From a virus (lineage: Duplodnaviria; Heunggongvirae; Uroviricota; Caudoviricetes): a DNA stretch of 27,035 nt. Numbering within the stretch: position 1 is the first letter of the stretch; every line of letters begins with the position of its first letter. The position numbers and the translations under genes were made by a program. Below the pieces are notes generated by a model. The model saw only the letters and a list, made by a program, of their open reading frames with translations, was not told where the DNA came from and made no database searches. The stretch lies in IMG/VR virus record IMGVR_UViG_2617270961_000004; one strand, 5' to 3'. Below, piece by piece: positions 18,662 through 27,035 of this stretch.

Positions 18662-22341
<3,680 letters not shown>

Positions 22342-22367
<26 letters not shown>

Positions 22368-22887
22368 TCAGCAACCCCGGTATCAGTTCATCCAGCGCGG
22401 CTGCTTTGTTCATGGCTTTGATGATATCCCGTTTCAGGAAATCAACATGTCGGTTTTCCAGTTCCGGAAAACGCCGCTGCACCGACAGGGGGATCCCGTC
22501 GAGAATACTGGCAATTTCACCTGCGATCCGCGACAGCACGAAAGTACAGAATGCGGTTTCCACCACTTCAGCGGAGTCTCTGGCATTCTTCAGTTCCTGT
22601 GCGTCGGCCTGCGCACGCGTAAGTCGATGGCGTTCGTACTCAATAGTCCCTGGCTGGAGATCTGCCTCGCTGGCCTGCCGCAGTTCTTCAACCTCCCGGC
22701 GCAGCTTTTCGTTCTCAATTTCAGCATCCCTTTTGGCATACCATTTTATGACGGCGGCAGAGTCATAAAGCACCTCATTACCCTTGCCACCGCCTCGCAG
22801 AACGGGCATTCCCTGTTCCTGCCAGTTCTGAATGGTACGGATACTCGCACCGAAAATGTCAGCCAGCTGCTTTTTGTTGACTTCCAT
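22342..22887 (-). CDS. Nu1: terminase small subunit Nu1 (181 aa)
   Basis: 181 aa, MEVNKKQLADIFGASIRTIQNWQEQGMPVLRGGGKGNEVLYD... (winged-HTH N-terminus); lies immediately inside cos. Confidence 0.95.
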
Positions 22888-23065
22888 TGTTCATTCCACG
22901 GACAAAAACAGAGAAAGGAAACGACAGAGGCCAAAAAGCTCGCTTTCAGCACCTGTCGTTTCCTTTCTTTTCAGGGGGTATTTTAAATAAAAACATTAAG
23001 TTACGACGAAGAAGAACGGAAACACCTTAAACCGGAAAATTTTCATAAATAGCGAAAACCCGCGA
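22888..23065 (-). promoter_or_regulatory. cosB region (terminase small-subunit binding R-site repeats)
   Basis: Inverted copies of an 11-bp element (ggaaacgacag at 22917-22927 and ctgtcgtttcc at 22954-22964) and a further gaacggaaacac near 23028, between the Nu1 start and cosN. The sequence reads as the reverse complement of the lambda left end as recalled. Confidence 0.7.
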
Positions 23066-23077
23066 GGTCGCCGCCCC
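23066..23077 (-). other. cosN, 12-nt cohesive-end site (GGGCGGCGACCT on the minus strand)
   Basis: Plus strand aggtcgccgccc is the exact reverse complement of the lambda cohesive end GGGCGGCGACCT. It is flanked by sequence matching the lambda left end (22888-23065) and right end (cgtaacctgtcggatc..ccggaaaggacccg at 23078-23108). Confidence 0.9.
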
Positions 23078-23275
23078 GTAACCTGTCGGATCGCCGGAAA
23101 GGACCCGCAAAATGATAATAATTATCATCTGCATGTCACAACGTGCATCTACGCCATCAAACCACGTCAAATAATCAATTATGACGCAGGTATCATATTA
23201 ATTGATCTGCATCAACTTAACGTAAAAACAACTTCAGACAATACAAATCAGCGACACTGAATACGGGACAACCTC

Positions 23276-23509
23276 ATGTCAACGAAGAACAGAACCCGCA
23301 GAACAACAACCCGCAACATCCGCTTTCCTAACCCAATGATTGAACAAATTAACATCGCTCTTGATCAAAAAGGGTCCGGGAATTTCTCAGCCTGGGTCAT
23401 TGAAGCCTGCCGCCGGAGACTGTGCTCAGAAAAAAGAGTTTCTCCTGAAGCAAACAAAGAAAAGAGTGACATTACTGAATTGCTCAGAAAACAGATCAGA
23501 CCAGATTGA
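23276..23509 (+). CDS. small basic putative ribbon-helix-helix (Arc/CopG-like) DNA-binding protein, 77 aa
   Basis: AT-rich ORF on the strand opposite the phage late genes. Basic N-terminus (MSTKNRTRRTTTRN), then a beta-strand-like IRFPNPMIEQINIAL and helix SAWVIEACRRRL resembling the RHH fold. Weak SD; family assignment is inference. Confidence 0.5.
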   Translation: MSTKNRTRRTTTRNIRFPNPMIEQINIALDQKGSGNFSAWVIEACRRRLCSEKRVSPEANKEKSDITELLRKQIRPD

Positions 23510-23565
23510 AGCAATTTAGATAATCGTGCAGACTACACCCCTCATATCACATGGAAGGTACTACA

Positions 23566-23976
23566 ATGGCTCAGGTTGCCATTTTTAAACAAATATTCGA
23601 TAAAGTGCGAAATAATTTAAACTATCACTGGTTTTATTCTGAACTAAAACGTCACAATGTCTCACATTACATTTACTATTTAGCCACAGAGAATATTCAT
23701 CTTGTTCTTGAAAACGATAATACGGTTTTAATAAAAGGACAGGGTAAGGTTGTAAATGTAAGATTTTCAAAAAATAAATGCCTTATAGAAGCCACCTTAA
23801 AGGGATTCAAATCAGGAGAGTTATCATTTTACGAATACAGGAAAAATCTTGCTACAGCAGGGGTTTTCAGATGGATTACAAATATCCACGAAAACAAAAG
23901 GTATTACTATACCTTTGATAATTCATTACTCTTTACTGAGAACATTCAGAACACTACACAAATATTTCCGCACTAA
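23566..23976 (+). CDS. hypothetical protein, 136 aa; tentatively DUF1398 / YbcV-like prophage protein
   Basis: AT-rich ORF with a GGAAGG SD 7 nt upstream of the ATG at 23566; the track ORF starts 5 codons earlier at an ATG with no SD. No signal peptide or transmembrane segment. The length equals that recalled for the E. coli DLP12 YbcV protein, which lies next to lysis genes in that prophage; the identity is unverified. Confidence 0.55.
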
Positions 23977-24263
23977 ATCATAACGTCCGGTTTCTTCCGT
24001 GCCAGAACCGGACTCGCTGGCATGATGAAATATGTGTACCCGGTAACCCCGGTGTGCATCGTTTTTGATTATTCCCACACACTCGCGCAGAAGGAGTTCC
24101 CCGTCGGGCTACGGTCTCTGTTAATACGGGAATACGGCGACGATACAGCGCATGATGTGTCAGGCTTGAATACCTTTATCCTTTAAAAGGGATATCAGTT
24201 AAGTTATCCCGTGTAGGGTATAAGCCATTATCAAACTCTGTAGGAAGTGGCTTTTGTAATGGC

Positions 24264-24290
24264 AATAAAAAGCCCCGCGAATGCGAGGCT
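24264..24290 (-). terminator. rho-independent terminator candidate downstream of Rz
   Basis: Hairpin agccccgc-gaat-gcgaggct (7 bp, one mismatch) followed on the minus strand by TTTTATT; positioned ~170 nt after the Rz stop. Confidence 0.5.
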
Positions 24291-24463
24291 AAATCCTGGT
24301 ATTTGTAATGACTGGCTCTTATCTCAACGCAGCCCCTTACCGCGCGCAAAATGCTCAATATCAAGCATCAGCAATGAGATGTTTAATCTGGATTCACTCC
24401 AGAAGTGAGCACCACCCTGTCTACAGAGCCAGATGTGAAGGATGATGAGTAAAATTATCGCTA

Positions 24464-24931
24464 TCATCGAAGGCATTGCGTCCTGATGTATTCCTGAAGC
24501 GTTCTCAGTGCTGTTTGGTCGCGGATAATTCCGTCCCGGATACCGAGAACGTTTCGTCCAGCAACTGGAGAGAGTTCGACGGTGGCATCATTGCCCATGC
24601 CGGAGGCGCTGGAGGTTTCGACTGAGGATGGCACAGGGCATTTTCCTTTGACGAGCACCCGACCACCATTATCAAGCTTGCGCCGAAGAGCATCATTTTC
24701 AGCTTTCGCATCAGCTAACTCCTTCGTGTATTTATCATCGAGTGCATCAGCATCACGCTGGCGCTGCTGCATGTCAGTAATGGTGGCGTTCGCCTTCTCC
24801 AGTTCACTGGCCTTGTTATCGCGCTGTTCTTTGTAGGCGATTGCATTATCACGGTAATGATTAACAGCCCATGACAGGCAGACGATGATGCAGATAACCA
24901 GAGCGGAGATAATCGCGGTTACCCTGCTCAT
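24464..24931 (-). CDS. Rz: spanin inner-membrane subunit Rz (i-spanin), 155 aa
   Basis: [38 protein letters not shown]...: N-terminal transmembrane helix then a coiled-coil periplasmic domain. ATG at 24929-24931 overlaps the R stop as ATGA; the track ORF starts 4 codons upstream at a GTG. Confidence 0.85.
24505..24711 (-). CDS. Rz1: spanin outer-membrane lipoprotein subunit Rz1 (o-spanin), 68 aa, embedded in Rz in the +1 frame
   Basis: [21 protein letters not shown]...: signal peptide plus lipobox (VVGC), Pro-rich mature part ([13 protein letters not shown]); AAGGAG SD 7 nt upstream. Fully nested inside Rz as in lambda. Confidence 0.75.
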
Positions 24932-25425
24932 TGTTGCCCCCACAAACAGACCTCACGCTCAATCTCACGACGAGTCATCAGGCCTTTCCATTGCTTACCG
25001 CCAGCGTATGCCCAGCGACGTAGCTGGTCACATGCGCCCTTGATATCGCCCTGGTTTATTTTGCGAAGAAGAGTAGATGTTCTGAAATTGCCTGCGCCCA
25101 CGTTATAGACGAACGAGTAAAGAGCGCCGCGCGTTGTTTCCGGTATATCGACTTTGATGTACGGGTTAATTTGTCTGGCTACCGTGGCAAGGTCTTTATT
25201 CAGGAGGGCTTTGCATTCTGCTTCGGTATACGTTTTACCGGGAATGATGTCTTTTCCTGTATGCCCGTGACATACAGTCCATACGCCAACGATATCTTTG
25301 TATGGTATGTAGCTGACACCTTCCAGACCATCGTTACCACTTGGGCCAGTGATTAACACTGATGCTATAGCAATTGCTCCGCCACCAATAGCAGCAGCAA
25401 CGGCTTTTCGTAATGATGGAGGCAT
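24928..25425 (-). CDS. R: SAR endolysin (phage-21 R-type lysozyme, T4-lysozyme-like GH24), 165 aa
   Basis: N-terminal signal-anchor-release segment ([20 protein letters not shown]) followed by the lysozyme catalytic region ([23 protein letters not shown]). Length and sequence match phage 21 R as recalled; this is not the lambda R transglycosylase. Confidence 0.9.
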
Positions 25426-25640
25426 TATTCACCTCTCGCAGCCTTGCGCTTATCTTCTTTAATCTTGAAATAAAGGTTTGTCAGGTACGTCAGCAGGCCA
25501 AATACCAAGCTACCCAGCACACCTATTGCTGCCCACTGTGAGGGCGTGACTTTATCGAGCAGCTGTAAAAACCAGTAGCCAGCACTGCCTGCGGAGGTGC
25601 CGTAGGCAATGCCCGTTGTTAACTTATCCATGGATTTCAT
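25425..25640 (-). CDS. S: pinholin S21-type (class II holin), 71 aa, dual-start motif
   Basis: [28 protein letters not shown]...[23 protein letters not shown]...: two transmembrane domains, Met1-Lys-Ser-Met4 dual start (antiholin/holin), charged C-terminus. GGAGGTGAGG SD. Stop overlaps the R start by 1 nt. Confidence 0.9.
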
Positions 25641-25735
25641 AGCCTCACCTCCGCAAATAACGGATGGTGTACACGGTTCGGAACGAAGAGGAAAGGTATA
25701 GAAGTTACATTAGCGTAAGGCTTGAACATCTATTC

Positions 25736-25766
25736 AAAAAGAAAAACGCCGCGATTATTCTGGCGT
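25736..25766 (-). terminator. weak terminator-like hairpin plus T-tract between the AraC-like gene and S
   Basis: 5-bp stem acgcc/ggcgt with an 11-nt loop, followed on the minus strand by TTTTTCTTTT; ~60 nt after the AraC-like stop and ~100 nt before the S start. The stem is weak, so low confidence. Confidence 0.3.
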
Positions 25767-25827
25767 AGCTGAAAGCATCATACAATTATCAAATACGAAA
25801 ATTACAAAATCATTAAAACGCATCACG

Positions 25828-26568
25828 TTACATCATGTCTTTTTCTAAAAAAAATCTTGATGAATATTGATGGGGAGGAACACCAAAATACCTTCTGAAA
25901 ACACTTACAAAATATGACGTGTTTTCATAACCGCATATCTCAGCAACTTTTCCAACAGAATATAAATTGTAGCTTAATAACCTTTCCGCCATCACCATTC
26001 GCTCTTCAAGAATTAACTTACTAAATGATAAGCCTTCGTGCTTTAATTTTCTTTTTAACAGACTTTCACTCAGATACAGTCTTGAAGATATATCACAAAG
26101 TCTCCATGCTGCAGATATATCCGTGTGAACAATAGCCTTAACTTTACTTCCTAAACTATTAAGACATCCAAATAAAAAACTTTGCACTATTTTCTCTGAA
26201 GATAAGATAGCAAGACATGCAAGTGATATTTGATTTCTAACAAAATCCACAGTTCTGCCATCACAATTCAAGCATGCAATCAAGTTCTTTAACAATGAAA
26301 AATCTTCACATTCCACCATCACGTATGCCGGATAAAACCTTCTTACAGAAAAAGGTGAGAGTGTGTTGCTTTTAAAGAAATCATTAACTGTTTTCTCTTC
26401 AACATCTACGATCATTACATGATCTATATTTGATGAAAAAAAATCTTTTAAATTGTAATCAATGAGAACAGCACTTCCTTTTTTAAACAAAATATCTTCT
26501 TTACCAATTCGGACATCAAACGAGTTCAACACCAAAATGATAGAACATATGTATGGCATATTATCCAC
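25828..26568 (-). CDS. AraC/XylS-family transcriptional regulator (GadX/YdeO/AppY-like subfamily), 246 aa
   Basis: C-terminal AraC-type HTH (LYLSESLLKRKLKHEGLSFSKLILEERM...VGKVAEICGYENTSYFVSVFRRYFGVPPHQY). Strongly AT-rich compared with the flanking phage genes. GGTGG SD. Subfamily assignment is from recalled similarity to E. coli YdeO. Confidence 0.85.
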   Translation of the reverse strand: MDNMPYICSIILVLNSFDVRIGKEDILFKKGSAVLIDYNLKDFFSSNIDHVMIVDVEEKTVNDFFKSNTLSPFSVRRFYPAYVMVECEDFSLLKNLIACLNCDGRTVDFVRNQISLACLAILSSEKIVQSFLFGCLNSLGSKVKAIVHTDISAAWRLCDISSRLYLSESLLKRKLKHEGLSFSKLILEERMVMAERLLSYNLYSVGKVAEICGYENTSYFVSVFRRYFGVPPHQYSSRFFLEKDMM

Positions 26569-26780
26569 CTGATATCATTGGGGTTACACCAGGTAAGTAT
26601 AGGTGGAAAATCAATATTCGCCAGTTCAACAATAAGGAAAATTTCATTGCATCACAAGTATAAAATTATGTATTTAACTCACAAAGACAAATTATTAAAC
26701 CAATCCGTTATATTATATATAGCTGCGTGGAATCATAATATTATATATTTTGACTGGCATGTTTACCAACTTTAAGTTGC

Positions 26781-27035
26781 GGTAATGACTCCAACTTATT
26801 GATAGTGTTTTATGTTCAGATAATGCCCGATGACTTTGTCATGCAGCTCCACCGATTTTGAGAACGACAGCGACTTCCGTCCCAGCCGTGCCAGGTGCTG
26901 CCTCAGATTCAGGTTATGCCGCTCAATTCGCTGCGTATATCGCTTGCTGATTACGTGCAGCTTTCCCTTCAGGCGGGATTCATACAGCGGCCAGCCATCC
27001 GTCATCCATATCACCACGTCAAAGGGTGACAGCAG
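26781..27035 (-). mobile_element. IS1 insertion sequence, right-end 255 bp (truncated by window edge)
   Basis: Terminal inverted repeat ggtaatgactccaacttattgatagtg beginning at 26781, followed by sequence matching the insB 3' end of IS1 as recalled. The rest of the element lies outside the window. Confidence 0.9.
26796..27035 (-). CDS. insB: IS1 transposase InsB, C-terminal part (partial; 5' end outside window)
   Basis: Translation ...[76 protein letters not shown] matches the InsB C-terminus; the reading frame stays open to the window end. Confidence 0.85.

Follow-up and report, generated by a model that had tools for sequence, protein, structure and literature searches.

Two ynfO/ydfO-like genes beside cos in a lambda-like prophage: a probable DNA-binding protein and an apparently separable cargo gene

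Layout of the cos-proximal locus

The 27,035-nucleotide stretch of DNA analyzed here (the window) corresponds, in reverse orientation, to the late region of a lambda-like prophage. The packaging genes Nu1 (22342-22887, 52.9% GC) and A (20442-22367, 54.1% GC) and the lysis genes Rz (24464-24943), R (24928-25425) and S (25425-25640) all lie on the minus strand. Between the two groups is a 12-nt cosN cohesive end (23065-23076), outside both genes considered below and an exact match to the reverse complement of lambda GGGCGGCGACCT. Nearby, the heptamer AGGACCC (23100-23106) resembles cosQ in sequence, and we take it to be lambda cosQ GGGTCCT on the opposite strand. Two small plus-strand genes are found 200 nt from cosN: ORF1, a ynfO-like gene of the DUF3950 family (23276-23509, 77 aa, 44.4% GC), and ORF2, a ydfO-like gene of the DUF1398 family (23566-23976, 136 aa, 31.6% GC), with 56 nt from the ORF1 stop to the ORF2 start. 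The original prediction, made from the sequence alone, of two small genes of these lengths and this spacing beside cos, more AT-rich than the phage backbone (54.1% GC over the whole window), is thus borne out. Its description of the pair as divergent from the late operon holds for Nu1 and A but not for Rz, R and S, with which the two genes converge; with respect to the single late transcript as a whole, the pair is better called antisense than divergent. If translation began instead at an in-frame ATG farther upstream (23551), the ORF2 product would have 141 aa. A Shine-Dalgarno sequence, GGAAGG, stands 7 nt ahead of the ATG at 23566, and the RefSeq annotation of a 99.9% identical genome has the 136-aa form.

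Several candidate control elements flank the pair. On the 5' side of ORF1, a perfect 8-bp inverted repeat, ATCAATTA-N17-TAATTGAT (23174-23206), could be an operator or part of a promoter region; identical copies occur in lambda, Qin and DLP12, and the repeat is missing from BP-4795-type phages. No plus-strand sigma-70 promoter passed a scan of the region, nor did a scan for canonical terminators return any, and an Rfam scan of the ORF1/ORF2 region gave no RNA family. Directly after the ORF2 stop codon comes a G+C-rich hairpin lacking a U tract (23985-24013). The terminator scan made no call there; the surrounding segment (23960-24060) folds at -30.7 kcal/mol (z -3.0), and the hairpin is possibly a non-canonical transcript end. 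Beyond it, a conserved flank (24034-24153) is common to BP-4795 (88.5%, blastn) and to the lambda segment upstream of bor, and marks the far edge of the cargo slot. In HK630, an annotated promoter feature falls in the lambda segment homologous to this flank.

Sites for two host regulators can also be recognized. The window's sole Fur-box-like site (23108-23126) matches GATAATGATAATCATTATC at 16 of 19 positions, with 0 such sites expected in shuffles, and overlaps the -10 element of a minus-strand promoter-like sequence, GTGACA-16-TATCAT (23139-23112), that points toward cos and Nu1. Both Qin and DLP12 have a strong Fur site between cos and the DUF3950 gene; that at Qin nohA is bound by Fur in vitro, while DLP12 nohB has a strong predicted cluster (PMC2189734). 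The site in the window is the conserved counterpart of these, and the terminase genes of lambda-type prophages may possess an iron-regulated, Q-independent promoter. As for the second regulator, a gSELEX table places a PdhR site, AACAGGTCAGACCAGAT, between K-12 ynfO and ydfO, and PdhR binding is recorded near both K-12 copies of the locus, with mRNA of the DLP12 DUF1398 gene ybcV down 10-fold in a pdhR mutant (PMC7660256). The candidate counterpart here, AACAGATCAGACCAGAT (23490-23506), agrees with the PdhR consensus at 9 of 14 positions.

Other features of the window may be recorded alongside. The heptamer ACCCGCA occurs three times in ~215 nt (23100-23112; 23291-23319), with one copy overlapping cosQ and two within the first 45 nt of ORF1, where they encode Thr-Arg repeats of the basic arm; the repetition is probably coincidental, because the cosQ-side copy is not kept in lambda, Qin or DLP12. 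A 50-aa minus-strand ORF (24271-24476), annotated "hypothetical protein" in the near-identical genome EC291, overlaps the end of Rz and is followed on the late strand by a terminator-like hairpin and T run (24290-24271). In lambda this position is taken by bor, which is absent here. Upstream of the holin gene, a second AT-rich block (25640-27035, 30-37% GC) corresponds to the Q-to-S cargo slot, where stx sits in Stx phages. It encodes a 246-aa AraC-family HTH protein (25828-26568, minus strand), after which EC291 has genes for a YbgA-family protein and a lipocalin. Toward the other end of the window, a Caudo_TAP protein is encoded at 1-585, and Rfam IS009 (RF02111) is matched at 220 bits at 44-242 on the minus strand, inside the tail-fibre-assembly gene region.

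The two proteins and their families

ORF1 matches DUF3950 (PF13132) at 74.7 bits (cut-off 25, E 5e-21), the NCBIfam YlcI/YnfO family NF041551 at 32.2 bits (cut-off 30) and phrog_949 at E 5.9e-33. A possible cf-PICI link, through a weak DUF3950-like match in the 16.5-kb element vB_KppS-Ant, was set aside; the match falls inside another annotated gene. The product is very basic (pI 10.6), differs from YnfO at two of the first 52 residues and ends in a Qin-type C-terminal tail of 25 aa, within which a helix is predicted at 63-73. Over the N-terminal 52 codons, dN/dS is 0.05-0.14 at dS 0.7-1.4 among lambda-type and Stx-type phages. In the structure model (pLDDT 65), the N-terminal arm is extended and helices span residues 19-32 and 37-52; the model's best compact structural neighbours are ribbon-helix-helix (RHH) antitoxins. 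Sequence-profile tests of ORF1, on the other hand, were not significant. The suggestion that ORF1 is RHH-like therefore stands as plausible, on weak evidence for the fold and with a strand register to Arc, described below, and not as a profile match; ORF1 is probably an Arc-like RHH DNA-binding protein.

ORF2 was likewise suspected at the outset of being a DUF1398 protein, and it is one: it scores 147.1 bits against PF07166 (cut-off 22, E 3e-43) over the full 119-position model. It is 76% identical to E. coli YdfO over its whole length, with a phmmer E-value of 2.9e-67 to 2HH8, the NMR structure of YdfO, and 100% identical to the allele carried by phages PhiR49_1, Kati, Chlobot and ev099. Pairs at dS 0.36-0.67 give dN/dS of 0.18-0.37. 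ORF2 has the YdfO fold, and its model is an orphan alpha/beta fold of two helix-helix-strand-strand-strand units. An internal duplication in DUF1398 was considered and rejected at the sequence level, the two halves aligning no better than shuffles (z 0.9). The search for structural neighbours of ORF2 returned no fold other than YdfO's own and none that is toxin-like. The family is small, with 189 clusters among 1.84 billion representatives at single-sequence sensitivity, and those of its distant members that are named by source are all from Enterobacteriaceae.

No signal peptide, catalytic feature or toxin feature was found in ORF2, nor any membrane segment, the maximum Kyte-Doolittle hydropathy over 19 residues being 0.39. 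Its product is accordingly predicted to be a soluble, basic, cytoplasmic protein. The labels "putative envelope protein" and "head protein" attached to homologues of lambdap78, the lambda DUF1398 gene, trace to an old lambda record, to RefSeq and to PHROG phrog_413. They are unsupported: ORF2 is without a hydrophobic segment or signal sequence, and knock-down of lambdap78 leaves plating unaffected. Scans against Pfam and NCBIfam gave nothing besides the two DUF families, and PADLOC-DB 2.0 had no family for ORF1 and only an insignificant Csx23 match for ORF2 (E 0.023).

Conservation, linkage and host data

With dN/dS well below 1 for both, ORF1 and ORF2 are, by their codon-level conservation, real genes rather than chance ORFs. 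The 1.2-kb segment that contains them is matched in 4772 of 5426 complete E. coli genomes; in 2641 of these the match spans 80% or more of the segment. In the best of them, at 99.9% identity, the two genes carry the annotations "YlcI/YnfO family protein" and "DUF1398 domain-containing protein." The original prediction had allowed that the ORFs might prove non-conserved, and both are conserved and under purifying selection. It had also called the locus undescribed, which it is not: the genes are homologues of the known ynfO and ydfO, their families have entries in Pfam and NCBIfam, and the structure of YdfO has been solved.

Do the two genes form one module? Their distributions argue otherwise. 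DUF3950 is matched in 155 phage records out of 50,697 (almost exclusively from lambda-like and Stx phages of E. coli), as against 43 for DUF1398; in complete E. coli genomes the respective counts are 9549 and 3860 places. Stx-converting and other HK97-type phages carry DUF3950 solo, on the anti-late strand. In the HNH-type phages it points away from the HNH endonuclease gene, the first of the packaging module, at a distance of ~40 nt. This position, at the junction between lysis genes and first packaging gene and on the opposite strand, is the same in EC291, Qin, DLP12, a lambda-type phage and HNH-type Stx phages. The distance from DUF3950 start to HNH start codon is a constant 40-41 nt (L013 3459-3501, L014 425-467, L017 3959-4001 and L020-L025), so that the promoters of each would have to lie within the coding sequence of the other.

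DUF1398, for its part, also occurs elsewhere. Distant members are solo in the chromosomes of Pseudocitrobacter and relatives, with no DUF3950 sequence within 5 kb. Guilt by association is of no help with these, their neighbours being mutually unrelated (one has porin and metal genes beside it, another an aryl-polyene-type cluster). BP-4795 keeps the counterparts of 23276-23416, the ORF1 N-terminal segment, and of 24034-24153, the flank on the Rz side, and has no DUF1398 gene between them. Since both flanks are present there without it, ORF2 appears to be an AT-rich, moron-like insertion, its 31.6% GC set against 54.1% for the window; the idea of an accessory-gene slot at this place is upheld in this respect. 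Clusters that seem to show DUF3950-DUF1398 fusions (P0014, 233 aa) we take to be a gene-calling artefact in which the ynfO TGA stop is translated as W; ynfO and ydfO share a frame in the Qin-type sequence concerned, whereas ORF1 and ORF2 are in different frames in the window. From these comparisons, the best reading is that DUF3950 and DUF1398 are two separable accessory genes and not a coupled module, with DUF3950 apparently the constant element of the lysis/packaging junction and DUF1398 an optional cargo.

Lambda itself and DLP12 have homologues of both genes at the same place (a ylcI-like ORF, and lambdap78 or ybcV, respectively). In these two, however, a gene on the opposite strand splits DUF3950 from DUF1398: lambda has an extra 613 bp between them with lambdap79 on the late strand, and the DLP12 equivalent is ybcW. 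Lambda-type phage E26-Berryhill is 95.7% identical to window 22900-23438, and lambda-type sequence is 82% identical to 23493-24152. The intervening 54 bp (23439-23492) are Qin-type sequence that replaces lambda's 613 bp (L002 558-1170). The lambda DUF3950 protein, at 64 aa, is shorter than the 77-aa ORF1, and lambda, unlike the window, has bor downstream. According to a 2026 preprint, lambdap79 is the trigger of the Vulcan NADase defence, and Vulcan escape phages drop the gene by recombining with Qin (bioRxiv 10.64898/2026.09.04.749371). Such recombination yields the arrangement present in this window, whose phage, judged by its gene content, would not carry the Vulcan trigger. Natural variation at the slot may thus reflect selection by host immunity, as the locus borders that trigger and escape phages acquire the same arrangement from Qin.

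Data from the host side concern the relatives of ORF2. CRISPRi knock-down of lambdap78 does not reduce plating on K-12 (PMC10695390), and viability is retained both in a ybcV::Kan deletion strain and in an ASKA clone that over-expresses ybcV. The homologues of ORF2 in lambda and DLP12 are dispensable, and ORF2 itself is read as dispensable for lytic growth. The strong "induction" reported for ydfO and ybcV may be antisense late transcription, because the assays concerned were without established strand-specificity. The statement that YdfO over-expression protects against oxidative stress (PMC4077768) we set aside as a mix-up of gene names. The paper cited for it, PMC3105296, covers YfdK, YfdO and YfdS of prophage CPS-53 and leaves ydfO unmentioned. 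The "ydfO" of the SrsR paper is likewise yfdO. Between them, these two slips of ydfO for yfdO have given YdfO a false "oxidative stress" role.

Candidate roles and closest known systems

In our view, the balance of probability just favours reading the lambda-family ynfO/ydfO locus as a small DNA-binding regulator and an inserted cargo gene, that is, as separable accessory ("moron") genes. On this account, ORF1 and ORF2 would occupy the cargo slot that separates the lysis cassette from cos. ORF1, most likely a dimeric RHH transcription regulator, would be expressed in the lysogen from a promoter of its own that does not depend on Q-driven late transcription, and would control that promoter and its neighbours, including the downstream cargo gene where one is present. 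The ORF2 product would most likely bind a host protein or ligand and so adjust the physiology of the lysogen. The host-regulator sites described above, Fur beside cos and the candidate PdhR site at the ORF1/ORF2 junction, are close by.

A narrower proposal, a reasonable rival although we consider it unlikely, is that ORF1 regulates the packaging module, keeping terminase expression off in the lysogen or tuning it, and that ORF2 is unrelated cargo. The constancy of DUF3950 in position and orientation across non-homologous Nu1/A and HNH-TerS-TerL modules speaks for it, as do the strong purifying selection on a DNA-binding-like domain and the promoter-like site, overlapped by the Fur box, that reads from the intergenic region into cos and Nu1. 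Yet the intergenic DNA is unrelated between the two contexts: upstream of DUF3950 no shared operator is found, the homology of lambda-type and HNH-type sequences beginning exactly at the ORF1 ATG, and ORF1 therefore has no common target across packaging modules. With matches in only 155 phage records, DUF3950 is no partner of either terminase type in general, and its shared position could be a mere recombination joint. Lambda cos function, moreover, requires only cosQ, cosN and cosB.

It is decidedly unlikely that the Qin-type pair is a working two-protein unit in which the ORF1 tail restrains the DUF1398 protein, whose release blocks superinfecting phages or counters host immunity. Release would then come when late antisense transcription silences ORF1, or directly upon injection, this end of the genome being the first to enter. 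Such a unit would constitute a new mechanism of phage exclusion or counter-defence, present in about half of E. coli genomes and at the locus of the Vulcan trigger lambdap79.

The original prediction leaned toward an autoregulated toxin-antitoxin-like, superinfection-exclusion or defence module, and this we now regard as very improbable. An abortive-infection or exclusion pair of this kind would have ORF1 as RHH antitoxin and autorepressor, its tail neutralizing the effector ORF2. Shared strand and close spacing fit, as do the RHH-like N-terminal domain with its helix-bearing tail, the antitoxins among the structural neighbours of the model and a location in a prophage cargo slot; the longer Qin-type tail, furthermore, coincides with an adjoining DUF1398 gene. 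The two families, however, are unlinked in most of their occurrences (155 as against 43 phage records, and DUF1398 solo in chromosomes), and an opposite-strand gene intervenes in lambda and DLP12. Solo DUF3950 proteins have tails too, of varied length (75 aa in BP-4795, for example). ORF2 matches no toxin or defence family and no fold beyond its own, PADLOC gives no significant match for either gene, and ybcV can be deleted or over-expressed with the cells remaining viable.

Very doubtful indeed is the idea that the two are early genes, first to be injected, which serve in anti-defence or take-over. Lambda DNA enters the cell right end first, so that an inward promoter ~100-200 bp from the leading end would become available before any other, and ORF1 and ORF2 have the position and inward orientation to suit. 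That the neighbouring lambdap79 triggers Vulcan shows this end of the genome to be visible to defence systems (bioRxiv 10.64898/2026.09.04.749371). Against this, neither protein is similar to known anti-defence proteins, knock-down of lambdap78 causes no plating defect on K-12, the genes are kept in cryptic prophages that no longer infect, and DUF1398 is also present at non-phage chromosomal sites. Finally, that the genes are functionless, decaying remnants, as their AT-richness, poor annotation and want of a lytic-growth phenotype might suggest, is hardly credible, being contradicted by dN/dS well below 1 at substantial dS and by ORFs that are intact in viable phages and at thousands of sites across E. 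coli genomes.

The locus itself is an ordinary one: it is annotated in RefSeq, and both phage lambda and most E. coli genomes have it. What lends it value is its status as a "known unknown": in a model organism and in a model phage alike, two prophage genes that are very common, one of them with an orphan structure already solved, still await a function. The comparative results narrow what there is to test, namely the two genes separately and not as a toxin-antitoxin pair.

Among known systems, the closest to ORF1 include the RHH antitoxins of type II toxin-antitoxin systems (ParD, MazE6, TacA) and the Arc and Mnt proteins of phage P22. The latter are small basic proteins with an N-terminal arm, a beta-strand and two helices, a layout that ORF1 may share; the Arc strand F-N-L-R-W-P can be set in register with N-I-R-F-P of ORF1, which also has a glycine at the inter-helix turn. 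The sequence similarity to Arc is nevertheless not significant (hhalign probability 2.7%), and, unlike for Arc and Mnt, no antirepressor gene was found near ORF1 in the window. For ORF2, the natural comparison is with the lambda morons bor and lom, likewise non-essential, compositionally deviant inserts among conserved late segments, with bor in lambda even occupying the same slot on the anti-late strand. Here the likeness is one of genomic setting, as the products of bor and lom are outer-membrane proteins whose phenotypes are known, in contrast to ORF2 with its lack of signal peptide and membrane segment. The nearest relative of the locus as a whole is the K-12 Qin pair ynfO (b4533) and ydfO (b1549), which has the same families, order and strand, a spacing of 57 nt against 56 nt here, and a like position between nohA (the Nu1 homologue) with cos and the lysis genes. 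Qin is colinear with window 22900-24014 at 89.6% nucleotide identity. The two differ in that ORF2 represents another allele, 76% identical to Qin YdfO at dS 0.67, and in that Qin is a cryptic prophage, whereas the window holds an apparently complete lambda-like late region.
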